Part shown: positions 22,725 through 64,000 of the stretch, one piece after another
How positions within the stretch are numbered: position 1 is the stretch's first letter
Layout of the letters: each line of letters begins with the position of its first letter
Origin: Lentisphaerales bacterium
GTDB taxonomy: Bacteria > Verrucomicrobiota > Kiritimatiellia > JAUXFM01
NCBI GenBank assembly: GCA_030622955.1
Contig: JAUXFM010000001.1
Location: forward strand, 4,185-68,184
Direction: 5' to 3'
DNA length: 64,000 nucleotides
The notes under the pieces: generated by a model
What the model was told of the DNA's origin: nothing
Seen by the model: the letters and a program-made list of their open reading frames with translations, nothing else
Database searches by the model: none
Program-made: the position numbers and the translations under genes

Positions 22725-25075
22725 CTCGCCCCCCTTGAACTCAGATCACCATCGCACCTGCGCTCGATAAGATCCCACAATGGCCCCATCACCATTGCGT
22801 AGAGCATAACCGCGTCGCCAACCTGATTACTCGCGCAATAGCGAAGTTGCCCCTTCTTTTCGATCGGGAACCCGCCAAACTCCAGGGATGTGAGCAGATC
22901 CTGGAGATACGAGAAATCACCAAAAGCACTCGCACCAACGAAGGCCAATCCACTAGAACCGGCACTTATCTCTACAATAGGTATTACAGGACCCGAATCA
23001 ATATCCACCGGGCTGCGCCATGATTCAGGCCATTCCTTTGCATAGCCACAGCCGAACAACGTCTTGCCAAGTTCTTTCTTCGCACGCCGGTACTGATCTT
23101 CGGCAAATTCTCCGTCAACGAGTTGCAGGCAATGAGCTGCCAGCCAGATAGATGATCCTTCGGGCCCATCGAACGGTGTCCCATCGAACCCATAACTGGA
23201 GATGAGCAAACCCGTATCTGAATGTACCAGTTCCTGTTTTGCCGCCTTGATCCATTCGTCCAGGAACTCGCTGTGATCAAGCCCATCGAGAGCATCTGAA
23301 GCCTTGATGGCTGCCAGTGCTATGGAATTGCAGAAGACCCAGCATTCGTTGGGATAGCTCTCACCTGAGAACACAGGACTTTGCTTCATACATTTCACCA
23401 TGAGCTCAACCCGTTCCTGGAGGAGCGGCTTGTATTCCGACTTCTCTTCGACAAGTCTGCGCGCCGCCAGCATCAATGCAATCTCGCCGTCTTGAAAGAT
23501 GCTTCGGCCGGGTTTTGCAACGAAATTGCCCGTCCTTGCGTAGTCCAGGAGGAAGTAATAGATACCATGCTCCTTCTCAAGGCGAATGGTCTCGTCGATT
23601 ATTGAGTCCATAATATCGAGGTAGACGCCTTTTGATGACGGCTCACGCAACGCCATGTTGCTCAACGACAGAACGAGGAAGGTCCGCCCCATGAAATCCC
23701 ACTCAGCATTGCTCGCCCGCATCCTGGTTATCTCCTCCTTGCGCAGTGATGGATTCGACCATAGCTCGATATGTCTCGATGCGAGCGCATGCGCTTTGGG
23801 CGGGATGTTCTTTCCTCCAAAGTACTCATACACATCCTGCTTGAAGAAGATGTGAAGGCTGGGCAACCAGATGGCCGTAGCAATCCCCAACGCCAACAGC
23901 CCTTTCCCAATCCGATGTGCCCTCTCCGAAAAGCTCTCTTTCTTTGCATCGGCAGGCCGTAGAGTTTTCGCCATTCCTGTTTTTTTGCAAAAAGCATCGC
24001 ATACCAATTCTGCGATCACCGCGCATTCCAATCCAAACGGCAGGTAGCCGGCATAACCGAGTATCGGCATTTCGAACAATGTGAGCTTGTGCACGAACGG
24101 TACTTCGTAGATCCATTTCGCGACACTGAAGAAGTTCCACATCTCCCACAAGAACCCGCAGATCAGGGCTGCCATGGCAAGAAGGTAGAGCTTACGCCAC
24201 TTCCCTTTACTGATCCGCGCAAAGATCGTGGCTTCACCGCAGATGCATCTGAGCGCGGTCATGATGCATAGCGGCGAAAGCCAGAGCAGGGGAAATAGAT
24301 AACTCGGGTACAGCCCGATCAACGCAAGACCTCCAGCAGAGATGCTAAGTATCGGCCATGCCAGCGTGCGTGGATCCCGAGCTTCGATCCTTGCAAAATC
24401 GTCCAGTCCGGCCCCGATACGCGGATAGGAGTCGAGCAGTTCGTATGTCCCCATCACCGCCGGCAGGACTGTAGAAAACGGGAGTGTCGCGAAAAGGAAG
24501 TATTGGAGTGATGACAGGTCCTGTATGCCTTCGTAGTACCAGTTCTGTACGAATCGATTGAGATATTCGAAGAACCACCAGAACACGGCGCTGAACAGGA
24601 AGAGCAATATGAAATATTTTGGGCGATCCTTTAGCATACAGCGTCCTGTACGCCGGAGCGTCAGGCCGTTGATTACCAAGACATAGCCGAACCAGATCGG
24701 ACTAAACGTGAACTGCTGGAACGGGGCGAACCATGTGAACCTGTTCCACGCGAGCAGCCAGGTCGTGACTATGAGCACCAGGCCAAGCCAGCCCCACCAG
24801 GGAAACGCAATCTTCAATGAGCTGCCCGGATCAATGTTCTTCCGCCATTTGTAGACTCGTATATCGAATGGCAAAATTACCGCCAGCAGCATGACCGCGA
24901 GCGCAACGAAATGGATCCAGGAGAAATCCGCATGGGGCACGTACCAGGTCAAAGGCGGAAACTCGGCATATTTCGAGATCGACACCCCCTTGATCCAGAC
25001 CCCGATGAGCGGCAATCCGATCAGCATCGCGAGTGAGATACCGAGCCATAGAGCTCGTCTGACTCTTCCACTCAT
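22721..25075 (-). CDS. Fusion protein: ~440-aa Trp-rich polytopic membrane domain + C-terminal LDI-like (alpha/alpha)6-barrel domain (paralog B)
   Basis: The N-terminal half has ~10 hydrophobic helices rich in W/F/Y. The C-terminal half ('DHSEFLDEWIKA...DTGLL...DGPEGS...EFAEDQY...VDIDSGPV...NQVGDAVM') is clearly paralogous (~35% identity) to 21255-22448. It retains both LDI-like Cys positions ('NEC...FCNSIA'). Confidence 0.6.
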   Translation of the reverse strand: MSGRVRRALWLGISLAMLIGLPLIGVWIKGVSISKYAEFPPLTWYVPHADFSWIHFVALAVMLLAVILPFDIRVYKWRKNIDPGSSLKIAFPWWGWLGLVLIVTTWLLAWNRFTWFAPFQQFTFSPIWFGYVLVINGLTLRRTGRCMLKDRPKYFILLFLFSAVFWWFFEYLNRFVQNWYYEGIQDLSSLQYFLFATLPFSTVLPAVMGTYELLDSYPRIGAGLDDFARIEARDPRTLAWPILSISAGGLALIGLYPSYLFPLLWLSPLCIMTALRCICGEATIFARISKGKWRKLYLLAMAALICGFLWEMWNFFSVAKWIYEVPFVHKLTLFEMPILGYAGYLPFGLECAVIAELVCDAFCKKTGMAKTLRPADAKKESFSERAHRIGKGLLALGIATAIWLPSLHIFFKQDVYEYFGGKNIPPKAHALASRHIELWSNPSLRKEEITRMRASNAEWDFMGRTFLVLSLSNMALREPSSKGVYLDIMDSIIDETIRLEKEHGIYYFLLDYARTGNFVAKPGRSIFQDGEIALMLAARRLVEEKSEYKPLLQERVELMVKCMKQSPVFSGESYPNECWVFCNSIALAAIKASDALDGLDHSEFLDEWIKAAKQELVHSDTGLLISSYGFDGTPFDGPEGSSIWLAAHCLQLVDGEFAEDQYRRAKKELGKTLFGCGYAKEWPESWRSPVDIDSGPVIPIVEISAGSSGLAFVGASAFGDFSYLQDLLTSLEFGGFPIEKKGQLRYCASNQVGDAVMLYAMVMGPLWDLIERRCDGDLSSRGAR

Positions 25076-49692: not shown

Positions 49693-51279
49693 TTGACCAT
49701 TCTCCGAACAATGCTCGATGTTAAGATAATGAGCGGTGAGATTCTTGACGGGCTGGGCGGCCCGGCACGCAGGGCTGATATCGGCATCACCGACGACCGC
49801 ATAACAGATATCGGCGACCTCTCCACAGCAGAAGCCACAAGCACGATCGACGCAAAAGGAAAATACATTGCCCCGGGTTTCATCGATGCACATTCGCATT
49901 CTGATGCCTATCTCCTGATCGAACCCTCTGCCCAAAGCAAGATCCACCAGGGCATCACAACAGAAATCGTGGGCAACTGCGGCGCATCCGCCGCTCCGCT
50001 GACAGGCGCATACAAGCTACCATCCGACTGGCGCGACAAGACATTCCCCGCAGAATGGAGTACTGTCGCAGAATACAGATCGGTCTTCGAGCAAGTCAAA
50101 CCCGCCATTAATGCCGCAATGCTGATCGGCCACAATACGCTGCGTGCGGGAGTCGTTGGATATGATGATCGCGCCGCAACCCGAGAAGAAATGGAAAGAA
50201 TGAAAACGCTTCTCGAGCAAGCGCTTGAAGAAGGTGGCCGGGGACTGAGCACGGGGCTTATCTATGCGCCAGGTATGTTCGCTCCGACTGAGGAGATTAT
50301 CGAATTGGCTACTGTCGCCGCGGGTTGCAGCGGAATCTACAGCTCACATATGAGAAACGAAGGTAGCGAGCTTCTCGCTGCGATCACTGAAGCAATCTCC
50401 ATAGGCAGGAACACTGGAATCAGGGTCCAGATCTCCCACCTCAAGGCTGCAGGTAAGAACAACTGGAATAAGCTCGATGAGGCCATTGCACTTGTTGAAG
50501 AAGCACGTGATGAAGGATTGACGATCTTCGCGGATCGCTACCCCTATACTGCCGGCTGCACTGACCTAGATGTCATCTTTCCGAATTGGGCCGCTGAGGG
50601 AGGAGCAGATGCCATCCTTGTGCGGCTTGCCGACAAACAGCAACGCAAGCGGTTGCACAAAGACCTACTAAAAACTCGTTCGGAGCGGGATTGGGACTGC
50701 ATCATGATCAGTTCAACAGAACATCCCGACAATCTCGAGTTCCAGGGCAGGAAATTGACAGACGTTGCTTCCGAACTCAACACTGACCCAGTTGATGCTG
50801 CTCTTCGCCTGGTCGAAAAGGATCGCCTCAAGACACAGGCTTTCTTCTTTGGCCTAAGCGAAGAGAACCAATGGCATGTGCTCGGACTGCCCTGGGTCAT
50901 GCTGGGAACCGATGCATCGCTCCGAGCTAATACTGGGCAATTAAGCAAGGACTATCCGCACCCGAGGGCATTCGGTTCATTCCCGCTCTTCCTGAAAGCA
51001 TCTCTTGACGGCAGGACGGTTCCGCTACCGGAGGCCATCAAGAAAATGACAAGCCTGGCCGCGCAGCAATTCGATCTACCAGACAGAGGCAGTCTTGAAA
51101 TCGGCAAAGTTGCAGACATAGTGATCTTCAACCCAAAGCACGTTGAAGCAACCGCTTCCTATGCACGACCGCGCGAACTTGCCAAGGGAATCGATGAAGT
51201 CATCGTCAACGGAATCGTTACGATCAAATCCGGCAGGCCCACCGGTTCGTACGCCGGCCGCTTCCTCGCACAAAACTGA
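49693..51279 (+). CDS. N-acyl-D-amino-acid deacylase (D-aminoacylase) family amidohydrolase
   Basis: 'GFIDAHSHSD' metal-binding HxH and an amidohydrolase fold, 528 aa. Confidence 0.8.
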   Translation: MTILRTMLDVKIMSGEILDGLGGPARRADIGITDDRITDIGDLSTAEATSTIDAKGKYIAPGFIDAHSHSDAYLLIEPSAQSKIHQGITTEIVGNCGASAAPLTGAYKLPSDWRDKTFPAEWSTVAEYRSVFEQVKPAINAAMLIGHNTLRAGVVGYDDRAATREEMERMKTLLEQALEEGGRGLSTGLIYAPGMFAPTEEIIELATVAAGCSGIYSSHMRNEGSELLAAITEAISIGRNTGIRVQISHLKAAGKNNWNKLDEAIALVEEARDEGLTIFADRYPYTAGCTDLDVIFPNWAAEGGADAILVRLADKQQRKRLHKDLLKTRSERDWDCIMISSTEHPDNLEFQGRKLTDVASELNTDPVDAALRLVEKDRLKTQAFFFGLSEENQWHVLGLPWVMLGTDASLRANTGQLSKDYPHPRAFGSFPLFLKASLDGRTVPLPEAIKKMTSLAAQQFDLPDRGSLEIGKVADIVIFNPKHVEATASYARPRELAKGIDEVIVNGIVTIKSGRPTGSYAGRFLAQN

Positions 51280-51545
51280 TTTCATCCCGCTACTCCCAAG
51301 AGCAATGCGCATGTGAATGTTCGCCTGATTGCTATGCCGCTCCAGGACCGTACGATCCGCCTTAGCCCTATCTCAATGGATGCTGCAAGGATCTGTTCGC
51401 TAAATCTGGGCAACATGTCGCAAACAATTCAGTCTTGTGCATTTTCCGAACAGGCACAAATACATACACGCCATATATGCTTGTAGAGCTATCCCTCTGG
51501 AGTTAATGTCTTTGGCTTACCAACCACATTTCGCAGGAGGGAACC

Positions 51546-53525
51546 ATGCGAGCAAAAGACTGTCTACTGTTATCCCTGATTCTAGCCACTGCCCTCGTCG
51601 TCACAGCACAGGAAGACGATGTCGTTGTTACGGCAACACGAATGCCGAGAATGCGTTCCAAGGTTCCTGCCTCCGTCACAATGATCGACAGCAAGAAGCT
51701 GAAGACGCTGCCAGCCAGGAATCTTGACGATCTGCTTCAGTCGGAAAGCGGTGTATTCGTTCTACGCACAACAGGCATGGGCGGAGGACTTCCCTCCCAG
51801 ATAAACTTCCGCGGTATTCCGGGTCAGCACAGCACACTGCTACTCATCGACAATATGCCGCTAAACGAAGGCATATCGGGTTACCTCGGAATAAATGAAC
51901 TCCCCCTCAATGCAATCGACCACATCGAGGTCGTACGTGGTCCCTTCTCCAACCTTTACGGAACCGACGCCTTTGGCGGCGTCATTCATGCCTTCACTCC
52001 TTCTCCTGAAAACCTGCCGAATGTGAGCGCCTCCTACGAGCTTGGTAACGAAGACCTGAGGGCTGTTTCATTCCAGTGCAGTGCAGGGACGGAGAAGCTC
52101 GGCATCATCATCGATGCCGATAAACGTGATACGGACAACTACCTTGGCCGCGACGACGTAACAAAACGTTTCTGGATTGCAGAGCAGGGCCAGTTCATTG
52201 AAGTTGAAACAGCGGCAGATAACTACGACTACGAAGAGGAGCGTCTCTTTCTTAAAGCCGTCATGCAGGCCGGTTCCGCTCATAAGATCGCGCTACAAGG
52301 CAGATACCTGAAGAGTGAGCTTGGCTATGGGATTACGAGTCTTTTTCCGTTGATACCCGTATCCGCCGAGGATTCGATGCAAATAGAGACCGGCATGGGT
52401 GGCCTCGAATGGCAGTTCAAGGCAAACAACAAGGTCAGCACGGTAATGCGCGCGTATTATCGAGAACAGAGCCGCGAAACAATCGGTCTCGACATGGCTC
52501 GACTCATGCCCAGTATCTCCAGGGCCGAGAATGAGGATTGGAAGATTGAGGGCGCCATCGAACTTACCACCGACGCAGGACACACCATCTATGTTGCTGC
52601 AGATTTCTGGCAGGATGATGCAGATTTCTCACCACCAATGAATCCTGTTACCGCCGCACCCTTCCTCATGACGGCAGGCCGCGAGGTCGATGCCGACAAC
52701 CTTGGCGTCTATCTCCAGGATGAGATTCCGCTTGGGGATAGCTGTACAGTTGTAGCAGGTGTTCGGATCGACGAGCATTCAACTTTCGGATCAGCGGTCT
52801 CTCCCAAGGTTGGATTGTCATTTGACGTGAACGATCAGCTTGTCGTCCGGACATCGTTGGGTCGTGCATTCCGCGCCCCTTCCCTGCTTGAGCTGTATCA
52901 GCCTGATGTTGTCTTCGGAAACATAACCTTCTCCGCCAATCCTGAACTGAACCCCGAATACGTTGTGTCTGCAGATATCGGCATTGATTACATGCCGGCT
53001 GACAATCTCACCTTGCGTGCAGATGTTTTCGGTAATGATATGGCTGACCTGATCGGGAAGCGCGTTGAAGGCGCTTCGCTCTCGTTCGACAATGTGACCG
53101 ACGCATGGTCGGCAGGTTTAGAGTTTGGAGCCGATTGGCAGGCCAATGATGCAATCGCCATAAACGCTGACGCAACCTGGCAGCAGACGGAAGACCAGGA
53201 GACGGACATGGACCTCGAACACATGCCCGAGCTGATGCTTGGCCTTGGTCTACATGCGAAGAAGCAGGTCAAGAACGTCCAATTGAGCTGCTCCTTAACC
53301 GAGACTTACGTTGGAGAACGTGGTTACGTAGATTTTGCCAGTGGCGTCTGGGTGGAAATGGACGATTATTGGAGAGCGGATGTCGCAATCAAGGGGTCCA
53401 TGGGTAATACCTCATGGATCGGTGTATCGGTCGAAAACTTGTTCGACGAACTCTACCAGGAATCGCCCCTGATGGTACATGCGCCAGGCAGGCTCTATTC
53501 AGTCACGGTCGGCATTGAATATTAA
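51546..53525 (+). CDS. TonB-dependent outer-membrane receptor
   Basis: Signal peptide, TonB box 'DDVVVTATR', plug domain, and a 22-strand barrel. Confidence 0.85.
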   Translation: MRAKDCLLLSLILATALVVTAQEDDVVVTATRMPRMRSKVPASVTMIDSKKLKTLPARNLDDLLQSESGVFVLRTTGMGGGLPSQINFRGIPGQHSTLLLIDNMPLNEGISGYLGINELPLNAIDHIEVVRGPFSNLYGTDAFGGVIHAFTPSPENLPNVSASYELGNEDLRAVSFQCSAGTEKLGIIIDADKRDTDNYLGRDDVTKRFWIAEQGQFIEVETAADNYDYEEERLFLKAVMQAGSAHKIALQGRYLKSELGYGITSLFPLIPVSAEDSMQIETGMGGLEWQFKANNKVSTVMRAYYREQSRETIGLDMARLMPSISRAENEDWKIEGAIELTTDAGHTIYVAADFWQDDADFSPPMNPVTAAPFLMTAGREVDADNLGVYLQDEIPLGDSCTVVAGVRIDEHSTFGSAVSPKVGLSFDVNDQLVVRTSLGRAFRAPSLLELYQPDVVFGNITFSANPELNPEYVVSADIGIDYMPADNLTLRADVFGNDMADLIGKRVEGASLSFDNVTDAWSAGLEFGADWQANDAIAINADATWQQTEDQETDMDLEHMPELMLGLGLHAKKQVKNVQLSCSLTETYVGERGYVDFASGVWVEMDDYWRADVAIKGSMGNTSWIGVSVENLFDELYQESPLMVHAPGRLYSVTVGIEY

Positions 53526-53544
53526 ACCAGGAAGGATATAAATC

Positions 53545-54909
53545 ATGAATACGAAGCAACTATCACTGATCTCTATGGCTCTTGTCGCCACATCTGTGCT
53601 CGCAGCTGATCCCTCGGGCTGGCGCGTCGATGGAACCGGAAGATTCCCCAATGCGGATATACCCACAACATGGTCCGCCACTGAGAACGTGATCTGGAAG
53701 AAGGAGCTGCCCGACCGGTCTAATGCGTCACCTATCGTGATTGGCGACAAGATCTTTATCTGTATTGAGCCAACAACGCTGGCATGCCTGTCGACCAAAG
53801 ATGGTTCCATTCTGTGGAAGAAGGATAACGCTTACGCCGATGTCCTGACGGCGGATGAGGTCACAAGCAACAAGGAAGCCGACAAATCCATCGGCGCGCT
53901 AATGAAAACGTCCAAAACTTTGAGGAAACAAAAGAAACAACTGGAAAACAACCTCAAGAACGACGCCCAGAACGCTGAACTGAAAGAGCGGCTCAAAAAG
54001 ATATCCAAAGAAGGAAAGAAAGTAAACGAGCAGCTCAAGAAGCTTGAGATACATGCGTCACCACGCAAACATAAAGTCACGGGGAACTCAAGCCCCACGC
54101 CAGTGTCGGATGGACAACACGTTTACGTTCTCTATGGAACCGGCATTGCTGCATGCTACGATCTCAGCGGCAACCGTGTCTGGGCAAGAATTGTCGAGAA
54201 ACCGACACACGGCTGGGGACATTGCATATCCCCCCTTCTCATCGGCGACACACTGATCATGCACGTGCGCAACGTCTATGGGCTGAACAAGAAGACAGGT
54301 GCAGAGAAGTGGAAGCATCCAAGCGAAGCTCGTTGGGGTTCCCCGATCAAGGCAAGAGTCGGTGAAAATGACTACGCGGTAACAGCCAATGGCGAGATCC
54401 TGGATCCAAAAGATGGAAAAGACCTGACCGGGAAACTCTTCAAGCTTGCTTACAATTCACCGATGGTTGAAGGCAACGTTCTCTACTTCGTGCAAGCTAA
54501 GGGTAAGGCATTCGAATTACCTGACACACTTGACGCCGACAATAAACCGAAAGAGCTCTGGAAAACAGGTCTTAAAGGTGATCGCTTCTACGCCTCGCCG
54601 GTCTACCACAATGGCCTGATCTACGCCATCGTCCGCGGACGCACAATGAGCGTACTTGATGCCAAAGACGGCACCGTGCTCTATTCAAAGAAACTTGCAT
54701 TCAAGGGCACACCCTATCCAAGCATGATCCTGCTCGGCGACAAGATATGTGTCAGTTCCGATGATGGCACATCGATAATAGTAGAGCCTGGCCGCGAGTA
54801 CAAGGAGCTGGCGGTTAACAAGCTGGAGCCATTCCGGAGCTGCCCCGTTGTAGCGCAGAATCGGATGTACATTCGTACGCTGAAGCACCTCTACTGCATC
54901 GGAAAATAG
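53545..54909 (+). CDS. PQQ-like beta-propeller repeat protein with internal Lys-rich coiled-coil insertion (paralog 1)
   Basis: Signal peptide and repeated 'G..Y..D..G..LW' blades. A ~70-aa 'KQKKQLENNLKNDAQNAELKERLKKISKEGKKVNEQLKKLE' insert lies between blades. Confidence 0.7.
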   Translation: MNTKQLSLISMALVATSVLAADPSGWRVDGTGRFPNADIPTTWSATENVIWKKELPDRSNASPIVIGDKIFICIEPTTLACLSTKDGSILWKKDNAYADVLTADEVTSNKEADKSIGALMKTSKTLRKQKKQLENNLKNDAQNAELKERLKKISKEGKKVNEQLKKLEIHASPRKHKVTGNSSPTPVSDGQHVYVLYGTGIAACYDLSGNRVWARIVEKPTHGWGHCISPLLIGDTLIMHVRNVYGLNKKTGAEKWKHPSEARWGSPIKARVGENDYAVTANGEILDPKDGKDLTGKLFKLAYNSPMVEGNVLYFVQAKGKAFELPDTLDADNKPKELWKTGLKGDRFYASPVYHNGLIYAIVRGRTMSVLDAKDGTVLYSKKLAFKGTPYPSMILLGDKICVSSDDGTSIIVEPGREYKELAVNKLEPFRSCPVVAQNRMYIRTLKHLYCIGK

Positions 54910-54931
54910 ACTGGCTCGATGCACCTGCTCT

Positions 54932-55225
54932 TCACGCCCTCAGGGTCAGTCCTCTTATTACGGTATTCGCGCATTTCCGAAGTGTTTTCTTCAATATCAC
55001 AATTCCTTGTGTTGAGGAATTCTCAACAGAATCAATGTGCTTTATCATGTTCGAAATAACACCATCTCGAGACTCCACCTCATCCCTTTGTGAGGCACCA
55101 TTGTTCTGGTATATGACAACCAGGCAGGAACAGTACATAGTCCAGCCTGTCCTTGAATATCTTATCGCCTTCGTCCCCCGATTCATCACGTGATAAACTG
55201 CTCGAGCATATTCAATCCTTGGCAT
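54932..55225 (-). pseudogene. Degraded IS200/IS605-family (Transposase_17 / RAYT-like) transposase remnant
   Basis: N-terminus 'MPRIEYARAVYHVMNRG' matches the conserved 'PRIEYPGAxYHVxNRGN' start of IS200-like/REP-associated tyrosine transposases. The remainder diverges and is truncated (97 aa versus the ~150-300-aa intact transposase). Confidence 0.5.
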
Positions 55226-55350
55226 ACACCACCGTCAAACAACCCTTCTTAATCGTCAATACCTATTTAAGAGGCCTACGGCAATAATCCGTGACAGTGA
55301 TCATTGGCATTGCTAGACTCTGCCTGCTAATCGATAACCAATCAGCAAGG

Positions 55351-56574
55351 GTTTGCCATATGCACAAGTCATGCCTTGTATTCACTCTGATATTGATCCT
55401 GGCCTCATGCCTGTCAGTACAGGCGGTAGATTACGCCCAGTGGCGCGGATCTGAGCGTAATGGACATTCCGAGGAAACGAGCCTACTCAAGAAGTGGCCT
55501 TCGTCGGGGCCAAAGCAGCTCTGGAACACGAGCGGCTTTGGCCAGGGCTATTCCAGCCCGGCGCTCGCCGGACAGAACATATACTTGACCGGTGTTGTGA
55601 ACGGACAGTTCACCCTCTTCTGTCTCGACCTGAAAGGAAACGTCAAATGGAAGAAACAGGCAGGACGCGGTTGGACTAAGAGCTATCCCGGTGCACGTTC
55701 CACTCCGACCATCGACGGCAGGTGTGTCTATGTCATGTCGGGATACGGTGAGACATCCTGTTTCGACGCAAAGACAGGTTCCCGGAAGTGGTCGGTAAAC
55801 ACGCTCAAGAGATTCAATGGCAAGAACATCAAGTGGGGCATTTCAGAGTCGTTGCTGGTCGAAGGCAACAACGTAATCTGTACACCTGGCGGACCTGATG
55901 CGTCGATTGTCGCCCTCAATAAGAACACCGGCTCAACTGTGTGGGTCAGCAAAGGCATCAGTGAACTCTCTGCTTACTGCTCCCCTATCAGCATAACACA
56001 GGGTGGCAAACGCATCATCATCACGATGCTGGCAAATAACATCGTTGGGCTCAACGCCAAGAACGGCAAGCTGCTCTGGAAGCATCCCCACTCGAATAAG
56101 TGGAAAGCCCATGCGGTCACCCCTATTCACCATGAGGGGATGATCTACTGCACCAGTGGCTACGGCTTTGGTGGAGTCATGCTCAAGCTCAACAACAGCG
56201 GCACAAGTGTCCAGAAAGTATGGACTAACAAAGATCTCGATTGCCACCACGGCGGCGTTGTCATGGTCGACGGTCAGATCTACGGCACGAGTCATCGTGG
56301 CGCTTGGGTATGCCTCGATTGGAAGAACGGCACCGTCAAATACAAGGAACGAGGGATCGGCAAAGGATCCTGCATCTACGCTGACGGCATGCTCTACGGC
56401 TACAGCGAAAAGGGCACCTGCGGCCTGATCAAGACATCATCTAGCGGCTATGATCTCAGAAGTTCGTTCAAGATCAACCAGGGCAGTGGAGAACACTGGG
56501 CGCATCCGGTCGTGGCAGGCGGGGTGATGTATATAAGGCACGGCAATACGCTCATGGCGTACAAGTTGAAATGA
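55351..56574 (+). CDS. PQQ-like beta-propeller repeat protein (paralog 2)
   Basis: Signal peptide 'MHKSCLVFTLILILASCLSVQA' and repeated 'G..YC.D..TG...W' blades. Confidence 0.75.
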   Translation, partial: VCHMHKSCLVFTLILILASCLSVQAVDYAQWRGSERNGHSEETSLLKKWPSSGPKQLWNTSGFGQGYSSPALAGQNIYLTGVVNGQFTLFCLDLKGNVKWKKQAGRGWTKSYPGARSTPTIDGRCVYVMSGYGETSCFDAKTGSRKWSVNTLKRFNGKNIKWGISESLLVEGNNVICTPGGPDASIVALNKNTGSTVWVSKGISELSAYCSPISITQGGKRIIITMLANNIVGLNAKNGKLLWKHPHSNKWKAHAVTPIHHEGMIYCTSGYGFGGVMLKLNNSGTSVQKVWTNKDLDCHHGGVVMVDGQIYGTSHRGAWVCLDWKNGTVKYKERGIGKGSCIYADGMLYGYSEKGTCGLIKTSSSGYDLRSSFKINQGSGEHWAHPVVAGGVMYIRHGNTLMAYKLK

Positions 56575-56739
56575 TGACCTGAACACTTAGTTAGTCAATC
56601 CTGCCCTGCAGGAATCTGGATTACGCCGTCTGTGCGGTTGCCGCGACCTGGAAATATCGAGCTTTAAAGGTCAAGCCGAAGACGCCCTTCCCAGCGCATT
56701 CCCAATTCTCAATGCACGCCGAAAGCCATTCTGCACCCA

Positions 56740-59700
56740 CTATTCATCGCGCAACGCTGTAACAAGCGATCTTCTCATTCCGGCCAGCGCAGCAACCGCA
56801 GTGAGGAGGAAGCCTGTTGCAGCGATTCCTGCAAACATCACCAGCATCAAGCCGTAAGGCACTTTCGTTCCTGCCGATGTGAAACTCGGCCACAATGCCG
56901 TGCATGCGGCCGCCACTCCCAGCAATAGTCCGTATGCAATCAGGAACCAGTGCTCCGCAATGACCAGCCTGCAAACAGCACTCCGCGAATACCCGATGCA
57001 TCTGAGCACCGCAATCTCGCACCTACGTTCCAGAATATTGCGAAGAACGACCGCAGCCGTACCAACTGTTCCGAGCAACAAACCCAATCCGCCCAGCAAA
57101 AGAAAGATCGAAAGATATGTCGATTCGACCGCATAAAATTCTTCAAGTCGCTGCGTTGCGGGAACCAGATCCAATCCAACCCTCGCAAAATCGGCAGACA
57201 ACTCGGCCGCGATCCTATCGCTGTCATCACCCGCCCCATCAACCAACATCACCCGGTATCCTCCATCTGATGGATAGAGCCTGTTAAAATGACTTCGGGA
57301 AATAAGTATTGAACCCTGGAACACCGAAAGCTTCATCGGCAGTTTTCCCACGAGTTTAATTAATACCTGCTTCCCTGTCTCATCCCTGTAGATCAGCGCA
57401 TCGCCATCAATGGGGCCCACTTTCATCTGCAGCCCCCACATCGCCGTGTTGCCGTCGCCTGCAAGCGCAGGAATTGCGCCATCAGCCCTGACTTCTTCAA
57501 GAAGTGACCATGGATTGACTTCCTCATTTGCTGACACAAAAGAACCACGGCTTATCATATCCGTCGGATCGATGCCCAGAAGCTTTGGCGATTGCGCGCG
57601 GTTAAGGTTGAGACAACCGGCATCATCGCCACTGCGCATCTTGATCAATACAATGTCGAGTTTCGGCAACTCTGAACGTGAGCGAATTGGTGAATTCCCA
57701 CCCGCATCTTCCAGCAAAGCGGCAGTTGTCTCGCCGAACAAATCAAATCCGCCGGTACCGGACGATCCTTCTCCCGCATGAAGCGTTACATCTTCTTTCA
57801 TGGCCAGCACGGCAAATACCATAAAACAACCGGATGCCAGCAAGGCAGCAATTACGAGGCTGCGCCCACGCCGACGTGTTGCCGTCCGCACAGCCAGCCC
57901 ATGAAATGACAATCTTCCTGTTCCTCCGCGCATACTAATTCTACCAAGCACGTACGCGAGAAATGCAATACCTGCCACCAACAGTAACGCACCCGCGCCA
58001 AAGAATATAAAGGCCGTATCACGGGCATCTGTCACATCAGCCCAAACAACGAGACCTGCTGCCAGCATGGCTGTTGTGATGGATATGGGAAGCGGAAGCT
58101 TTGATCGATTGGTAGCCGGGGCAAGTGCGGCATCATTCCGCAACAATCCGGCAACAGACATAAGCATCCTCTTCGCCATCACCACTCTCATTACCAGCAT
58201 CGCACAAATGGCGGTTACTATGCCACCTGCCAGAACCGTACCTGGCGCCACGTGGTATTGGATTGTCGATCCGGCTATTGCGCCCTGCCAATGATTCGTC
58301 AGCCCCCATATCAACAATCGAGTATAGAGAATGCCAAGAAGAGCCCCGAGAATTGCACCCATGCATGCGACAATACAGCCTTCAAGAAGAAATACCTTCC
58401 TCGTTTGACCACGTGTGAAACCAAGCGCCAGCAGCGTCCCTATATGCTCTGAGCGCTGCTCCACAGCAAATACAAAGACCATTCCACTGAGCAACAGGGC
58501 CGCTGTGATGAGAAAGAAACTCATGCTCGCGAATAGCTGTCCAAAATCCATCCCCTGTCGCACCGCCGCCTTCGCTTCCTGATTGACCGGCACAAAGAAA
58601 AGGCCAAGCGAACTGGCCGACAGCTTCTTCTTAAGGCTACAGGTAAGCTCAGCTCCATCGTCAGATTCAATTCTGACACCGGACAGATTGCCAAAGCGAT
58701 TGGCCCACATCTCCTGGCCCGCCACGAGCGTAACAAACGCTTTTGGCGTGGCCCGATATTTGCCCCAATATTGCTCGTTCTTCTCATCATTCAGTAATTC
58801 GTCATCCATGGGCATGCTGACATCCCAGCTGGCGCAGCGCTCGACATCCGCCAGACCAGGAAAACGCGGTACGAGTTCTTTTTCAATGCCAAGGGAAGCC
58901 ATCTTTACAATGCTGTGAACAGCAAATGTACGTGTTCTTTCGATGAACTCGTTGCCGTCTGTCAGTTCATAGTATTTAAGATCAAGACTGTCGCCTGCCC
59001 TCGCATCCAGCTCTCTTGCCACCCATTCGTTGATTATGATTTGGTCATCCCTCATATCTGCCGGCACGATACCAAGACGGCAACCGGATGTAGGCTGAAT
59101 CGCGGTTACGAATGAATAAGGAGTGCCCACATCGCCATTCTTCTTTCTGATGTCGTTCACGAGATAAGTCAGCGCTCCAACAGTGCCCGGTGTTTTCAGC
59201 GCAGCGGCGGCTGTCTCTCTCTGCAAAAAGATGCGCTCACTTTCAAGTTGAACAATCCGCTTACTTGCAGATGATTCCATCCTCATTCCGACGTCATCCG
59301 GCTCCCATACCCTTTCCAGTATACGTTGCGCATCGCTGCAGCTTGTCTCTGCATCCGACGCCCCCTTGGCAAGTAGCAGGTTGATCTTATCTTCCAGGCC
59401 AATGATCTTCTGCAACCATCCAAGATCAACAAAGACATTGTACGGTGCAATCTGATTGGCGGATAAGCTGAACCTACCAAGCTCATCGTCCTGTACAATT
59501 CGAGATATTTCGAGGAGCACCTGCACTGAAGTCCGATCCCTTCTGAAGGACAGGGGTGCCTCTTCGGGCATGAGTCCCGGCCTCATCAAGCGGACCGACA
59601 CTTCATCCCCCACAACGGCATCGAGCGCTTCGGCTACCTTCACGCTCAATGCTATGGTGCCAGGAGCAATTGCCTCCCCACCTCCGTCAGCAAAACTCCA

Positions 59701-60057
59701 GAAGCCGACAGCAACACCCAGTACCTGAACATTATTGACCTGCTTTCGCCATGCGCTTTCCGGCTCCTGATGCACCACGACGCCGGGCAATTGCAATGCC
59801 CCAGTTGCATCGAGAGCATCGTCCCCGTTCAATTCCTCGGCCAATCTGCCGCTAAAGAAACGGTTCCGGCTATATATGGCACTCTCAGTCTTGCCCAACC
59901 GCAAGAGAGCAAGACGGCGCAGGCTGTATCGAACCGAATCACCGACAAGCAGTGACCCTGTAAGAACTATGGCTGCGACCATGACGCTGAGGCAAACACA
60001 GGCATTCGTTCGCCGATTGAATCTGATACTGTTAATGACAAGCTTAGTGAAAGTCAT
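56740..60057 (-). CDS. ABC transporter permease, duplicated FtsX/MacB-type (two 4-TM permease modules with large periplasmic domains)
   Basis: 1105 aa with two FtsX-like TM bundles, and it is coupled to the ATPase gene by a 4-bp overlap. Confidence 0.8.
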   Translation of the reverse strand: MTFTKLVINSIRFNRRTNACVCLSVMVAAIVLTGSLLVGDSVRYSLRRLALLRLGKTESAIYSRNRFFSGRLAEELNGDDALDATGALQLPGVVVHQEPESAWRKQVNNVQVLGVAVGFWSFADGGGEAIAPGTIALSVKVAEALDAVVGDEVSVRLMRPGLMPEEAPLSFRRDRTSVQVLLEISRIVQDDELGRFSLSANQIAPYNVFVDLGWLQKIIGLEDKINLLLAKGASDAETSCSDAQRILERVWEPDDVGMRMESSASKRIVQLESERIFLQRETAAAALKTPGTVGALTYLVNDIRKKNGDVGTPYSFVTAIQPTSGCRLGIVPADMRDDQIIINEWVARELDARAGDSLDLKYYELTDGNEFIERTRTFAVHSIVKMASLGIEKELVPRFPGLADVERCASWDVSMPMDDELLNDEKNEQYWGKYRATPKAFVTLVAGQEMWANRFGNLSGVRIESDDGAELTCSLKKKLSASSLGLFFVPVNQEAKAAVRQGMDFGQLFASMSFFLITAALLLSGMVFVFAVEQRSEHIGTLLALGFTRGQTRKVFLLEGCIVACMGAILGALLGILYTRLLIWGLTNHWQGAIAGSTIQYHVAPGTVLAGGIVTAICAMLVMRVVMAKRMLMSVAGLLRNDAALAPATNRSKLPLPISITTAMLAAGLVVWADVTDARDTAFIFFGAGALLLVAGIAFLAYVLGRISMRGGTGRLSFHGLAVRTATRRRGRSLVIAALLASGCFMVFAVLAMKEDVTLHAGEGSSGTGGFDLFGETTAALLEDAGGNSPIRSRSELPKLDIVLIKMRSGDDAGCLNLNRAQSPKLLGIDPTDMISRGSFVSANEEVNPWSLLEEVRADGAIPALAGDGNTAMWGLQMKVGPIDGDALIYRDETGKQVLIKLVGKLPMKLSVFQGSILISRSHFNRLYPSDGGYRVMLVDGAGDDSDRIAAELSADFARVGLDLVPATQRLEEFYAVESTYLSIFLLLGGLGLLLGTVGTAAVVLRNILERRCEIAVLRCIGYSRSAVCRLVIAEHWFLIAYGLLLGVAAACTALWPSFTSAGTKVPYGLMLVMFAGIAATGFLLTAVAALAGMRRSLVTALRDE

Positions 60058-60740
60058 TGTGTTTGTTTCAACACGCCATCGCTCAATTCATAAACATGCT
60101 CCAGCTCCACGGCCCATAGCGATGCATGCGTGACCACGACCATGGCGACCCCATCCTTATCATTGATGTCGGTCAACAAATTCATGAGTGATTCAGCCGA
60201 TTTGTGGTCAAGCGAACCGGTAGGTTCATCCGCCAGCAGCAGAATCGGCCTATTGATTAGAGCCCGTGCAACGGCAACTCTCTGACATTCGCCACCTGAC
60301 AATTGACCGGGCCTGTAGTCCAGCCGATCGGACAACCCCACCCTGTCGAGTAAGTGTCTTGCATATTTCTCAACTTCTTCACCTTGATTCTGATTTACGA
60401 GAGTAGGCACGAGCACGTTCTCCAACGCCGTACATTGCGGCAGCAGATGGTGTAGCTGAAATATGAAGCCTATCTCGCTGTTTCGGGCGGCTGCAATATC
60501 CTTCTCGTCGAGCCGGGCTGCATCTCTGCCTTCAAGCATGACCTTGCCGGTGCTCGGCTTGTCAAGCAGCCCCATAATGTTAAGCAATGTGCTCTTACCT
60601 GATCCTGAAGGCCCCGTCACAGCCAGAGCATCGCTCTTCGATATGCTGATGCTGACGCCCTTGAGAATCATTTCAGGCGCAGTAACAACATCGTAAGATT
60701 TAGTAACATTCTCCAGTCGCAGGATGTTTTCTATGTTCAT
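60054..60740 (-). CDS. ABC transporter ATP-binding protein (LolD/MacB-type)
   Basis: Walker A 'GPSGSGKST', signature 'LSGGECQRVAVARAL', and Walker B 'LLLADEPTGSLD'. Confidence 0.9.
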   Translation of the reverse strand: MNIENILRLENVTKSYDVVTAPEMILKGVSISISKSDALAVTGPSGSGKSTLLNIMGLLDKPSTGKVMLEGRDAARLDEKDIAAARNSEIGFIFQLHHLLPQCTALENVLVPTLVNQNQGEEVEKYARHLLDRVGLSDRLDYRPGQLSGGECQRVAVARALINRPILLLADEPTGSLDHKSAESLMNLLTDINDKDGVAMVVVTHASLWAVELEHVYELSDGVLKQTQ

Positions 60741-61933
60741 TTCTTCTCCCCAAAAGCCACGAGGCGACCACCCACCGTCCCCACAACAATCAAGCCGTGA
60801 GCAACAGAGGGCTCGGTTAACTTCTCACCCAGCACATATGACCATAGCGTCTCGCCCGTCTTCACCGACAACATATAGATTGTGCTTTCACCACTCACTA
60901 TGACCTTGTCGCCTGCTACAACTGGCGAAGATAGATGTAGATCGTCAATCTTGAATGACCAATCTGTCTGCCCGCTCTTACGATCCATCGAATAGGCAAT
61001 GCCATCTAGATTGGCAAGAATCACAGAATCTCTTGTCAGGGCCGGTGTTGGGAATGGATCATTGTGTCTGGCATCCGAATCCGCATTCTTCCAGAGTATG
61101 TCTTGCGTATTCAAGTTAATGGCAAAGACCTCTCCAGTTCTTGTCACGAAGACACCGTAATTCACGTCAATAGCCGCGCCACCTGCCATTTCCCGAGAAT
61201 GTGTGCGCCCATCATTTCCTTTTGGTTCGCTCAATTCAATCGCACTGAGTTTATCTCCATTCCTCGTCGAAACGATCTGAACAGTACAATCACAATCCCC
61301 GAACACTATCTTGGCACCTGTAACTGAAGGCGAGCCGGCAGAAGGTGCCGCACCGCGGGCAACCCATATCTTCTTTCCGCTATCGACATCGATGCAATGG
61401 AGATCCCCCTCCGGCCAAGTGATTGCCAAGGCCGCCTCCTGCTTGGCGCTCACTGTGCAGGCAGCTACCGAGTTCAGCACGTTTGTGCCGGCCTTGTATT
61501 GCCAGGCCTGCAGGCCCGTAGCACCATCAAATGCATATACCGTCCCGCTCTTGCCGCCGATGACAACCTTATCCTTGATCAAAACAGTGGCGCCTGTGAA
61601 ATACTCCTGCTCTCTGACACCATCCTTGGGCCTTGCAACAGTGGACCATCGTTCCTTCCCATCAAGATCCACGGCATAGACAATTCCATCATCTGTGGTG
61701 AAATAGATATACTTACCAATGGTCGGAGCGCGATCAATGCTCCCGTTCGCCCGGAATCGCCAACGGCGTACAGGCTTATCGGGCACAGTACAACGCGCCA
61801 CGCCGGACAGCGATCTGTTCCCATGATAGGTAGGCCAATCCGCCCGAGCCGACCAGATCGGCTCTGCTTGCACACAGCGCAATGCTACGAACAACATCGC
61901 GCACAATACAACATACTTTCCAAGCTTAATCAT
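60737..61933 (-). CDS. PQQ-like beta-propeller repeat protein (paralog 3)
   Basis: Signal peptide 'MIKLGKYVVLCAMLFVALRCVQA' and PQQ/BamB-like blades. It overlaps the ATPase gene by 4 bp and the GT1 gene by 8 bp. Confidence 0.75.
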   Translation of the reverse strand: MIKLGKYVVLCAMLFVALRCVQAEPIWSARADWPTYHGNRSLSGVARCTVPDKPVRRWRFRANGSIDRAPTIGKYIYFTTDDGIVYAVDLDGKERWSTVARPKDGVREQEYFTGATVLIKDKVVIGGKSGTVYAFDGATGLQAWQYKAGTNVLNSVAACTVSAKQEAALAITWPEGDLHCIDVDSGKKIWVARGAAPSAGSPSVTGAKIVFGDCDCTVQIVSTRNGDKLSAIELSEPKGNDGRTHSREMAGGAAIDVNYGVFVTRTGEVFAINLNTQDILWKNADSDARHNDPFPTPALTRDSVILANLDGIAYSMDRKSGQTDWSFKIDDLHLSSPVVAGDKVIVSGESTIYMLSVKTGETLWSYVLGEKLTEPSVAHGLIVVGTVGGRLVAFGEKK

Positions 61934-63215
61934 TAAGTTGACTGTAAACTGCAATTGTGTTCTCTGCCATCTTTTCGATACTGAAATTCTCCGCAACATT
62001 GTCGCGGCCCTTTCGGCCCAGCTCAACAGCACGCGATTTATCCAGGAGAATCGATTTCAAGGCGGAAACCAATGCGCCCTCTTCGTCCGGCGCATATGTG
62101 ATTCCACCTCCAGTGGCTTCGACAATTTCAGGAAATGCGCCGACAGCAGGCTGCACCACCGGCACACCTGACGCCATCGCTTCTATGAGATACGTCCCGA
62201 ACGCTTCGCCGCCGGGCACAGGCACCGAAAGCACCGAAAGCTGACTCAAGAATTCGATGCGTGATATTTTGTCAAACTTCTCAAGTATTTCCACATCCCC
62301 TTCAACGCCGGCGGCCCTGAACCGATCTTGAACGCTCCGCACGAACTCCCGCGATCCTGCCGTCACTCCGCCCGTAGCTTTGAACTTCAGCATCTTCAAT
62401 CTTTCATCTCTCTTCAATTCGATGAATGCATCCGCAAGAGCGCCGAAGCCGGCCGATTCCGAGATCCTCGACAAATATCCCAACAATGGCGGATCCACAA
62501 CGTCCGGGGATACCTGGTAATCAGAATGGTTCAGCCCGACAGGCACAACATGCAATTGCTCATCCAAAAGCTTCATGCGTTCCTTCATGCGCTGACCGTA
62601 ATACCTGCTCACGGAGATGAACGCATCCACATCCTTCGCGCGCTCGGCGAAAATGGCCCATGCTTCATCGGCATCGCCCCGCGCCATGGCATCCAGCCAT
62701 CCATCCTCGTCCTGCAGCGAGCACACAATTTTCGCGCCGGTCTTCTTCCTCAACTCCCTGACAAGCCCAAGCAGAAGCGCATTCGACAAATGAATGATGT
62801 CCGGCTTAACCTCTCTGCTCAACCATTCTACAAGGTGCTCCAGTTCCTCGGCCTGTCCGCCCGACTCCCCCCTCAACATGGAAATCGTCATGCTCGCCAA
62901 ACCACTGGCCTTGACCGAGCCCTCGCGCTGAGCCGCCTGCCTGAGCACGTTCTCAGTCTTCAAGATGCGGCACAACCACTGTGGCATGTGTTTCAAAAAG
63001 GGATATCGATGTTTCAGATACATCTCGACAGCGCTGAAAAACACCGGGATATCCTTGGTGACATCTTCACCAATCGCGAACAGCGGAAGGTACATCGGCA
63101 CAACCGTCACATCATGGTCATGCTTCCTGAACTCGCGGAACAGTTCACCATCACGCATACAGTTCTGACAGTAGAACGTGTCGCCGGAACCAGGAACTAT
63201 GTAGGCTATCTTCAT
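61926..63215 (-). CDS. Glycosyltransferase family 1 (GT4-like)
   Basis: The C-terminal GT-B nucleotide-sugar fold 'GGEAFGTYLIEAMASGVPVV' lies in this 429-aa product. Confidence 0.8.
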   Translation of the reverse strand: MKIAYIVPGSGDTFYCQNCMRDGELFREFRKHDHDVTVVPMYLPLFAIGEDVTKDIPVFFSAVEMYLKHRYPFLKHMPQWLCRILKTENVLRQAAQREGSVKASGLASMTISMLRGESGGQAEELEHLVEWLSREVKPDIIHLSNALLLGLVRELRKKTGAKIVCSLQDEDGWLDAMARGDADEAWAIFAERAKDVDAFISVSRYYGQRMKERMKLLDEQLHVVPVGLNHSDYQVSPDVVDPPLLGYLSRISESAGFGALADAFIELKRDERLKMLKFKATGGVTAGSREFVRSVQDRFRAAGVEGDVEILEKFDKISRIEFLSQLSVLSVPVPGGEAFGTYLIEAMASGVPVVQPAVGAFPEIVEATGGGITYAPDEEGALVSALKSILLDKSRAVELGRKGRDNVAENFSIEKMAENTIAVYSQLND

Positions 63216-63371
63216 TATCAGGGATGAGGGATGAAACCTGAGGCCTGAGCCATAGAAAGTGAAAAGAGCGAGCGTCCCACATTCAACATCGAACGCCGAA
63301 TACCGAAGTGAAGAGTCTTTACTAATCTATCCGGCAATCGCACTACACATGCTCGGTTCATGCTCCCGCCC

Positions 63372-64000
63372 TCACATGGATGTTGGATATTGAGCGTTCG
63401 ATGTTTGCTTCTCCTGGCCAGCACCTTCCCTGAACGCGAGTGCTCCTGTGGGGCATCTTCTCACACATTCTTCCGCAGCGCTGCCCAATCCATCGCTCAT
63501 GTTCCCGCCAAAAGGCACCGCAATACCTGTATCCATCCCACGATTCACAAAACTGAGGCCGGGCTCAATGCCGCGCTTCTCCGTGATGCGGACACAGAGC
63601 CCGCACAGAATGCATTTCCCCTGCTCGAAGACTATTTCCGGATGCTCGACATTCTGTTCATAGGTTCTTCGCTCGGCTGCTTTGAATTCGCGCTGCAGAG
63701 CATTGCATCGATCGGAATAGTCTCGTAATCGACATGCATCAGCTTTCCTGCAATCACAATGAAGGCAGCGGCGCGATTCGTCTCTTACCTGCCCGGGAGT
63801 CGGCGCGATGTCTTCGACCCCTGGATCAATTCGACCGACAGGCTCGGCTTGTGCAAGGAACAGGTCCTTTTCAGCGTCATGTAATCGTCCGATGGTCGAG
63901 TTGAAGCGCCGCCACGTTTCGTTCGCCTTGCCCGTCTCCAGGTAACTGCCGACGAGATTTGCCAATCGCTTCCCCTCACCAACAGCATGAATAACAGTTC
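63372..64000 (-). CDS. 4Fe-4S ferredoxin-domain protein, C-terminal part (5' end beyond window)
   Basis: Cys clusters 'CLHCDCRKADAC', 'CILCGLCVRI' and 'CVRRCPTG' (CxxCxxCxxxCP-type). The ORF runs to the window edge. Confidence 0.5.
   Translation of the reverse strand, partial: TVIHAVGEGKRLANLVGSYLETGKANETWRRFNSTIGRLHDAEKDLFLAQAEPVGRIDPGVEDIAPTPGQVRDESRRCLHCDCRKADACRLRDYSDRCNALQREFKAAERRTYEQNVEHPEIVFEQGKCILCGLCVRITEKRGIEPGLSFVNRGMDTGIAVPFGGNMSDGLGSAAEECVRRCPTGALAFREGAGQEKQTSNAQYPTSM

Follow-up and report, generated by a model that had tools for sequence, protein, structure and literature searches.

A conserved locus of beta-propeller, ABC permease and electron-transfer genes in a Lentisphaerales bacterium and its relatives

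The DNA stretch analysed here (the window; 64,000 nucleotides of contig JAUXFM010000001.1, assembly GCA_030622955.1) comes from a Lentisphaerales bacterium and carries on its minus strand four coupled genes for a glycosyltransferase (GT), a secreted beta-propeller of the pyrroloquinoline quinone (PQQ)-like type named PQQ3, an ATP-binding cassette (ABC) ATPase and a double-FtsX permease, together with two further propeller genes, PQQ1 and PQQ2, on the opposite strand. Comparison of gene content and order with related loci indicates that the unit as a whole comprises about 11–15 co-directional genes, of which those noticed in a preliminary description of the window form the 3' third, or tail end. 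Building on the observed gene anatomy, the folds and a synteny verified in both search directions, we tentatively read the locus, with a little under even confidence, as one conserved envelope system of many phyla that consists of two linked modules, namely an ABC mechanotransmission machine with propeller partners and an NAD(P)H-fed electron route to the periplasm.

In the window, the open reading frame (ORF) map revealed overlaps of 8 bp between GT and PQQ3, 4 bp between PQQ3 and the ABC ATPase, and 4 bp between the ABC ATPase and the permease, in agreement with the 4–8 bp on which the preliminary description had based its claim of coupling. That description had let the unit end at position 63215; however, the gene cluster runs on with a GltD/NfnA-like frame up to the window edge. 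The neighbourhoods compared at the outset were those of three permease homologues, from Pontiella desulfatans, a Kiritimatiellae metagenome-assembled genome (MAG) and a metagenome contig. All three display the upstream order of a small ferredoxin, a PF12801 NapH-like protein, a propeller of about 600 amino acids (aa), a NuoE/NuoF fusion of about 780 aa and a GltD-like protein of about 520 aa, followed by the genes for GT (missing in one of them), PQQ propeller, ABC ATPase and permease. In the metagenome contig (L004), where no GT gene lies in between, the GltD-like gene overlaps that of PQQ_A, the family of PQQ3 orthologues, by 4 bp, which would tie the ABC and redox modules into one transcription unit.

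A survey with the permease alignment against one genome per species, in which the first 600 candidates were examined, unveiled permease relatives in at least 568 of the 600 candidate stretches. The best 80 matches are near full-length with 32–46% identity, and the labels of their loci point to about ten phyla (Planctomycetota, Verrucomicrobiota, Hydrogenedentota, Lentisphaerota, Bacteroidota, Calditrichota, Spirochaetota, Nitrospirota, Desulfobacterota and Binatia), a spread that is wide even though some labels stem from MAGs and can be wrong. ORFs were called and clustered, and each family was then mapped by tblastn, so that antisense ORF artefacts were unable to hide genes. In the 37 loci where 8 kb or more flank the permease gene on either side, the ABC ATPase was present in 36, PQQ_A in 27 and GT in 26, followed by a third propeller family, PQQ_C (21), GltD-like (19), NuoEF (18), PQQ_B, to which PQQ2 belongs (16), NapH-like (12), NapG-like (9) and a propeller of the NHL type (8). 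Redox genes lie within 10 kb in 19 of the 37 loci, and four of the 37 display a different, verrucomicrobial accessory set.

The reciprocal survey, with the NapH-like alignment against metagenome contigs, 10-kb flanks and a coverage filter, returned 80 loci in a near invariant order: PQQ_B (one to four copies), NHL, NapG-like, NapH-like, PQQ_C, NuoEF, GltD-like, PQQ_A, GT and ABC ATPase. The permease was seen in two of them (L116 and L165), which are those with enough of it inside the 10-kb flank. NHL, NapG-like and PQQ_C are encoded in all 27 NapH-anchored loci of at least 14 kb, PQQ_B in 26, NuoEF in 24, GltD-like in 23, PQQ_A in 18, GT in 17 and the ABC ATPase in 15, the fall in these counts being largely due to the distance from the anchor gene. 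With the permease added at its end, this is the usual full order of the locus, and its recurrence in dozens of independent loci from many phyla is more than chance. Co-location of the four coupled genes in other genomes, which had been proposed as a check on the preliminary description, is borne out in both search directions. Its reading as an envelope module is also a fair description, but to see in it purely export or assembly overlooks the redox half of the locus. Families of the membrane-fusion (MacA), TolC or outer-membrane factor and LolA-like types were absent from the conserved locus neighbours.

Two observations concern the surroundings of the locus in relatives. Genes resembling those of type II secretion systems or type IV pili (secretin, GspE/GspF-type, pseudopilins) adjoin it in Pontiella desulfatans (L001, 14227–23168) and in several Pirellulales MAGs (upstream regions of L018, L020, L021 and L022); this may be a chance co-location. 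A different conserved context is found at the verrucomicrobial permease loci L026, L032, L044, L055, L072, L077 and L084, with the order Fe-alcohol dehydrogenase, PQQ_A, HemN-like radical SAM enzyme, a 189-aa protein (c18), FAD halogenase/monooxygenase-like enzyme, GT4, 4HBT thioesterase, a 190-aa polytopic protein (c12), PaaK-like ligase, ABC ATPase, permease and a secreted protein of about 247 aa (c7). This set looks like small-molecule or lipid biosynthetic genes that replace the redox module. Neither Pfam nor NCBIfam matched the proteins c7, c12 and c18, even with a threshold of E <= 10, and a guess that c12 might be a DMT-type flippase was dropped as unsupported.

The permease displayed ten transmembrane (TM) segments by hydropathy, with a first periplasmic domain (PD1) at residues 39–513 and a second (PD2) at residues 753–980. 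Its AlphaFold2 model (predicted local distance difference test score, pLDDT, 90.2; predicted template modelling score, pTM, 0.87) found in Foldseek as top PDB matches E. coli YbbP (9ge7_A and 9ge6_A, E 3e-15 and 4e-14, TM-score on the target 0.45–0.60), followed by BceB, LolE, MacB and HrtB. By sequence it is remote from all five, and YbbP was not retrieved by sequence or profile search. PD1 is internally duplicated (about residues 101–194 versus 294–390, hhalign probability 95%), and the permease therefore has three MacB-type periplasmic core units versus two in YbbP. A search with PD1 revealed 3431 cluster representatives at 50% clustering, 1617 of them at E <= 1e-30 and nearly all with a length of about 1100 aa and the domain at the same position; the permease family is thus coherent and large. 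Hundreds of full-length relatives show 41–49% identity, those with names being Kiritimatiellae, including Pontiella desulfatans, which points to a Kiritimatiellota-like PVC bacterium as the probable source of the window. None of the longer homologues screened for domain fusions (Rosetta-stone evidence) carried one. At least 95% of 76 sequences share the PD2 motif GDDASCLNLN, which includes C815. A periplasmic cysteine pair, C408/C815, was considered as a redox site and dropped because, across the whole family, C815 alone reaches a conservation of at least 95%.

YbbAP-TesA is the known system to which this module comes closest in build. Its mechanism, 2:1:1 stoichiometry and the 10-helix topology of YbbP have been described, and its function is conferred by the periplasmic partner docked between the periplasmic domains (PMC12646458; PDB 9GE6-9GE8). 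Like YbbAP, the locus encodes a separate ATPase of the MacB/LolD class, and, like YbbP, the permease is one polypeptide whose 10-helix fold arises from internal duplication and carries big periplasmic domains after TM1 and TM7. The two permeases share only about 12% sequence identity, and the one studied here is 1105 aa long versus 804 aa in YbbP because its PD1 is duplicated. The docking partner would be the genetically coupled periplasmic propeller; the candidates are 8-bladed propellers, whereas TesA is an SGNH hydrolase, a kind of protein that the locus does not encode. YbbAP also lacks a counterpart of the GT4 gene and the iron-sulfur electron-transfer module of the locus. With LolCDE-LolA and MacAB-TolC the locus shares TM domains of the FtsX type, periplasmic core domains of the MacB type and an ATPase that resembles LolD and MacB. 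However, LolC and LolE form a heterodimer of two separate 4-TM permeases of about 400 aa with one periplasmic domain each, in contrast to the fused double permease, and MacB is a homodimer with a fused N-terminal nucleotide-binding domain and a 4-TM FtsX domain, in contrast to the separate ATPase gene found here.

The ABC ATPase shows Walker A (GPSGSGKST), signature (LSGGECQR), Walker B (LLLADEPT) and H-loop motifs in its translation. It is closest to LolD, then to MacB, YbbA and FtsE, but stays under every equivalog cut-off: the LolD models TIGR02211 and NF008639 gave 251.6 and 225.7 bits (cut-offs 307.75 and 360), the YbbA model 189.9 bits (cut-off 336), and the MacB model NF007826, which matches the ATPase part only, 205 bits (cut-off 966). 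In the PDB, LolD was matched with E 2e-57 and YbbA with E 8e-46. The permease scored far below the LolC/E equivalogs TIGR02212 (38.8 bits, cut-off 362), NF008357 (18.6, cut-off 439) and TIGR02213 (16.4, cut-off 540), and below the ADOP duplicated permease TIGR03434 (42.4 bits, cut-off 622.3). The possibility, raised beforehand as one that would undo the grouping, that the permease belongs with ordinary LolCDE systems is thus countered by these scores, by its single 10-TM polypeptide and by its best fold match, YbbP; by cut-offs and architecture it is not a MacB either, though the MacB-type fold is shared. The suggested inspection of the LolC/E versus MacB hook gave no alignable counterpart of the LolC hook, which binds LolA, because the periplasmic domains of the permease share no sequence similarity with LolC. 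By sequence, fold and synteny, the first module is a type VII (MacB-superfamily) ABC machine.

The three propellers of the window, previously described as paralogs, are not interchangeable ones: PQQ3 falls into PQQ_A and PQQ2 into PQQ_B, both with fixed positions in the locus, while PQQ1 stands apart in a separate family. PQQ_A is found at position -2 or -3 relative to the permease, beside the GT and ABC genes; PQQ_B directly follows the permease or lies at the 5' end of the locus; PQQ_C, with three N-terminal TM helices, is always encoded between the NapH-like and NuoEF genes. The start of PQQ3 is fixed by the 398-aa form, which is 100% identical to an NCBI gene call (P0387). Its AlphaFold2 model is an 8-bladed propeller (pLDDT 90.8) with BamB as the best fold match (TM-score 0.75–0.83, about 20% identity), and tetrathionate hydrolase, a cofactor-less enzyme, was matched as well; PQQ3 is modelled as a cofactor-less BamB-like fold. 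It shares with BamB the 8-bladed PQQ_2-type propeller, but differs in its signal of the signal peptidase I type without a lipobox, and BamB has no equivalent of the at least three distinct propeller families that hold fixed syntenic positions with ABC and redox genes in the studied locus. The BamB model TIGR03300 gave 109 (PQQ3), 66 and 39 bits on the three propellers versus a cut-off of 285, the quinoprotein dehydrogenase models TIGR03075 and TIGR03074 at most 52.9 bits versus 480 and 832, and PF01011 marginal whole-protein scores only, with no significant stretch. Beyond structural glycines and tryptophans and a few cysteines, PQQ_A, PQQ_B and PQQ_C conserve no catalytic or cofactor-binding motif. 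On these curated cut-offs and on architecture, membership in LolCDE, MacB, BamB and the quinoproteins was rejected for the respective genes.

The signal peptides of PQQ3 and PQQ1 end in ...LRCVQA/EP and ...VLA/ADP (the slash marks the cleavage site), both of the signal peptidase I type and without a lipobox, and PQQ2 has a possible lipobox, LASC, but its cysteine is not conserved among orthologues; the proposed check for lipoprotein signals therefore revealed no convincing one in the three propellers. PQQ2 probably starts at an ATG, the methionine at position 24 of the ORF being conserved in orthologues, and it is 40–47% identical to the propeller encoded directly after the permease in L010 and L078. 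PQQ1 has its nearest locus relatives in the PQQ_C propellers, with 25–29% identity. Its Lys-rich insert, previously put at about 70 aa and called unusual, is indeed present as a Lys/Glu-rich, helical stretch of about 80 aa between blades (about residues 95–175, 18 lysines in 86 residues), but it is a trait of the family, which counts 662 homologues; of 16 relatives sampled, 14 carry it between the same blades. PQQ1-type propellers that have a charged helical insert were also seen in other contexts with no ABC or permease gene nearby (L087, 6244–10340; L086, 10001–12174), one being a trio of adjoining propeller genes (405, 466 and 476 aa) and another a propeller gene followed by that of a 245-aa protein with a faint 4Fe-4S ferredoxin-domain match. 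Because such relatives occur without ABC or permease genes, PQQ1-type propellers may form assemblies of their own.

The GT reached all Pfam cut-offs for its domains (PF13439 40 bits, PF13579 33, PF00534 52 and PF13692 53) and none of the NCBIfam equivalog cut-offs, its relatives in the PDB include MshA, BshA and PimA-type enzymes, and hydropathy predicted no TM segment. It had been labelled GT1, which is true only in the sense of the Pfam name "Glycosyl transferases group 1" with a Glyco_transf_4 N-terminal domain; this combination we take to be that of a CAZy GT4-type GT-B enzyme, not of a CAZy GT1. In this GT family an N-terminal FYCxxCxRD motif (residues 14–22) and C165 are conserved in at least 85% of 38 orthologues, at a position where GT4 enzymes usually carry a Gly-rich loop in the case of the former. 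From sequence conservation, there are hints that these residues form a metal site or a redox-sensitive site.

The redox half is represented in the window by the 3' part of the GltD-like gene, whose frame has Fer4_Nqo3 and PRK12814 matches, lies 156 bp upstream of the GT gene and aligns to residues 332–520 of the 522-aa GltD-like protein at the equivalent position in L002 (42% identity, E 4e-50). The full-length orthologue has its best PDB matches in StnABC (8oh5_C), 9bov_A and NfnA (9n5u_A), with E values from 1e-91 to 1e-105, and matches the N-terminal 370 residues of the StnABC/NfnABC subunits. The architecture of the Bfu/Stn/NfnABC family, with a NuoG-type N-terminus and a GltD-like domain beside NuoE/NuoF, is found in the related loci, the window holding the C-terminal 208 aa only. 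As in StnABC and NfnABC (PMC10482914, PMC11829005, PMC9304861), NuoE and NuoF, fused here, accompany a subunit that combines a 2Fe-2S N-terminus of the NuoG type with a FAD/NADPH domain resembling GltD, a likeness in sequence and architecture only; unlike theirs, this subunit is about 520 aa long versus 960–1180 aa, lacks the C-terminal formate-dehydrogenase-like part, and is encoded with NuoEF between genes for membrane and periplasmic proteins. Bfu-family modules can be attached to membrane complexes, membrane-attached Bfu variants have been anticipated, and many clades are without assigned function (PMC9304861).

In the related loci, the NuoEF fusion has NuoE, NuoF and two-cluster ferredoxin domains, the NapG-like protein a twin-arginine translocation (Tat) motif RRxF and 16 conserved cysteines, enough for four [4Fe-4S] clusters, and the polytopic PF12801 NapH-like protein CxxxCP pairs and two CxxCxxCxxxCP motifs. 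The NHL propeller is TM-anchored and highly conserved with an invariant GCCNP motif, and its profile search returned generic NHL, PknD and TRIM matches only. NapH-like proteins have been described as modular conduits to extracytosolic oxidoreductases (PMC8238504). The NapGH-like genes compared here, which lie in related loci outside the window, resemble such systems in the polytopic PF12801 protein beside a Tat-exported poly-ferredoxin with periplasmic propellers encoded near; unlike them, the NapH-like representative has no Pfam FMN-binding match, no ApbE-like family is among the conserved neighbours, there is no nitrate, nitrous oxide or organohalide reductase, and the pairing is with a NuoEF/GltD module in the cytoplasm and with a type VII ABC system.

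On the proposed reading as two linked modules, a pair of 228-aa ATPases would power one YbbP-like permease with ten TM helices, which would hold three MacB-type periplasmic subdomains (the duplicated PD1 and PD2) above the membrane. By analogy with YbbAP-TesA, LolCDE-LolA and FtsEX-EnvC, ATP binding and hydrolysis would be passed as movement to these domains, which would act on a docked periplasmic partner or pass to it a membrane-derived hydrophobic or glycosylated molecule. The likeliest docked partner would be the coupled 8-bladed propeller PQQ_A (PQQ3), with PQQ_B (PQQ2) as a further one, and the coupled cytoplasmic GT4 enzyme would most plausibly make or modify the substrate, for example a glycolipid. 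In the second module, the Bfu/Stn/NfnABC-like NuoE/F fusion and the GltD/NfnA-like subunit would take electrons from NAD(P)H or ferredoxin, and the NapH-like polytopic iron-sulfur protein with the Tat-exported NapG-like protein, putatively with four [4Fe-4S] clusters, would carry them across the membrane. The membrane-anchored PQQ_C and the TM-anchored NHL propeller, encoded between or beside the electron-transfer genes, would belong to this module, whose electrons may be used for a reductive step that targets the same substrate or protein complex in the periplasm. Taken further, and as a rather doubtful extension, this would amount to an envelope machine of a new class, in which a type VII ABC mechanotransducer and a NAD(P)H/ferredoxin-fed NapGH-like conduit jointly act on a periplasmic assembly of four beta-propeller kinds; anaerobic bacteria from many phyla that degrade polysaccharides might use it, e.g., to process a glycosylated lipid or another envelope molecule reductively and then to extract it or hand it on.

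Several points weigh against such a two-module system. Synteny is the sole link between the ABC and redox modules, and of the latter just the final 208 codons fall within the window, the rest upstream being inferred from relatives. The core stands without redox genes within 10 kb in six of the 37 permease loci, eight of the 37 have neither PQQ_A nor GT, and the verrucomicrobial relatives carry unrelated enzymes in place of the redox genes, so that coupling of the modules is not obligatory. NuoEF and GltD-like pairs are also ordinary central-metabolism transhydrogenases in anaerobes. No propeller has a recognisable cofactor site, hence an evident electron acceptor is lacking, and no flippase is conserved in the locus, though the product of a cytoplasmic GT4 enzyme would need one.

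The loci with the core of PQQ_A, GT, ABC ATPase and permease but without redox genes, and those of Verrucomicrobiota with other enzymes, would fit a simpler arrangement in which the GT4 enzyme makes a glycolipid that the ABC ATPase and permease pull out of the inner membrane and the propellers escort to the outer one, as in Lol or DevBCA, the NuoEF/GltD/NapGH genes being an unrelated neighbouring respiratory or transhydrogenase operon. Type VII ABC systems commonly extract lipid-like substrates (PMC12646458), and the PDB relatives of the GT include the PimA-type lipid glycosyltransferases. We nevertheless consider dedicated lipid export unlikely: in several phyla, and in both search directions, the order and orientation of the redox genes relative to the core are constant, the 4-bp overlap in L004 joins the GltD-like gene to PQQ_A, and the PQQ_B, PQQ_C and NHL genes are interleaved with the redox genes, which are therefore not a separable housekeeping operon. 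It seems similarly improbable that the permease moves no substrate at all and that mechanotransmission switches on or assembles a propeller-based redox enzyme fed by NapGH, as FtsEX does with EnvC and, conceptually, NosDFY for NosZ. FtsEX-type systems do act in this way (PMC12646458), NapH-like conduits are typically paired with periplasmic oxidoreductases, including the propeller enzymes ExaA and NirS (PMC8238504), and cofactor-less 8-bladed propeller enzymes such as the tetrathionate hydrolase matched by PQQ3 exist; yet the lack of conserved catalytic or cofactor-binding motifs in PQQ_A, PQQ_B and PQQ_C speaks against an enzyme, and the tightly coupled GT4 gene would be left unexplained.

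Generic annotation would suggest something more ordinary, namely LolCDE lipoprotein release, a BamB accessory or MacAB-type efflux, given an ATPase closest to LolD, propellers automatically named "BamB family" and a permease called "ABC-type lipoprotein release" or "antimicrobial peptide transport" in some sources. This is largely refuted and very improbable, as the LolC/E, LolD, MacB and BamB equivalog models all stay far under their cut-offs, the permease, with its 1105 aa, ten TM segments and duplicated PD1, is a fusion, the propellers have no conserved lipobox, and the conserved neighbours include neither MacA nor TolC-type genes. Caution is accordingly due when these genes are automatically labelled "BamB family" or "lipoprotein release permease".

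Every part of the locus belongs to a known kind, but the permease family (YbbP-like, with duplicated PD1), its propeller partners and the fixed association with NapGH/Bfu-like genes were not found in the searchable literature, where papers concern individual components only and none on this gene combination was found; the locus is apparently undescribed. The function of type VII ABC systems comes from the periplasmic partner, of which a handful are known (LolA, MacA, EnvC, TesA and BceS), and BamB-like propellers would be a new kind of candidate partner in a large and widespread family. If the association is functional, this would be, as far as we found, the first mechanotransmission ABC system wired to periplasmic electron delivery. 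Culturable carriers exist in Pontiella desulfatans and Marinilabiliaceae JC017, which makes the question of function directly testable; Draconibacterium, a genus with cultured members, appears among the permease-survey labels as a MAG only.

The features of the window region are collected in Table 1. All seven genes of the preliminary description, from the TonB-dependent receptor to the GT, were recovered at their positions, and Pfam and NCBIfam confirmed their families. PQQ1 and PQQ2 do lie beside the receptor gene on the opposite strand, but not upstream as had been said: they are downstream of the permease and convergent with it, with a tail-to-tail spacing of 165 bp.

Table 1. Genes at and around the propeller-ABC locus, given as positions in the 64,000-nucleotide window (genes from the ORF map, families from Pfam and NCBIfam scans)
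Feature	Position	Strand	Basis or remark
TonB-dependent receptor	51546-53525	+	plug and barrel domains; 20 bp upstream of PQQ1
PQQ1, secreted propeller	53545-54909	+	Pfam/NCBIfam
PQQ2, PQQ_B orthologue, secreted propeller	55360-56574 (ORF listed from GTG at 55291)	+	PQQ_2, 94 bits
Double-FtsX permease, 1105 aa	56740-60057	-	two FtsX domains (Pfam)
ABC ATPase, MacB/LolD/YbbA class, 228 aa	60054-60740	-	PF00005 match
PQQ3, PQQ_A orthologue, secreted propeller, 398 aa	60737-61933	-	identical NCBI gene call P0387
GT-B glycosyltransferase, cytoplasmic, 429 aa	61926-63215	-	Glyco_transf_4 and Glycos_transf_1 domains
GltD/NfnA-like iron-sulfur flavoprotein, 3' part (about last 208 codons)	63372-63998, open to window edge	-	homology to L002 protein

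The TonB-dependent receptor has heme and B12 receptor subfamilies as its top NCBIfam matches, all far under their cut-offs, and none of the other 85 permease loci encodes a homologue; the receptor is a neighbour specific to this lineage and stands outside the conserved locus. Between PQQ1 and the probable start of PQQ2 lies a gap of about 450 bp (54910–55359), whose sole ORF is a 97-aa antisense frame (54932–55225), and an Rfam scan gave no match in the region, including this gap. Promoter and terminator scans of positions 51000–64000 were uninformative, with counts not above those of shuffled sequence. The remaining window is ordinary chromosome with genes for FtsK, a RimO/MiaB-type enzyme, a H+-pyrophosphatase, two-component systems and one tRNA-Glu. 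Unrelated to the propeller-ABC locus is a B12-binding radical SAM protein (6760–8238, minus strand) that carries a DUF4070 domain and adjoins a histidine kinase/response regulator pair (4856–6462). A 784-aa ORF at 22721–25075 (minus strand) has as its sole Pfam match a linalool dehydratase/isomerase domain, which is marginal with 26.1 bits, exactly the cut-off.

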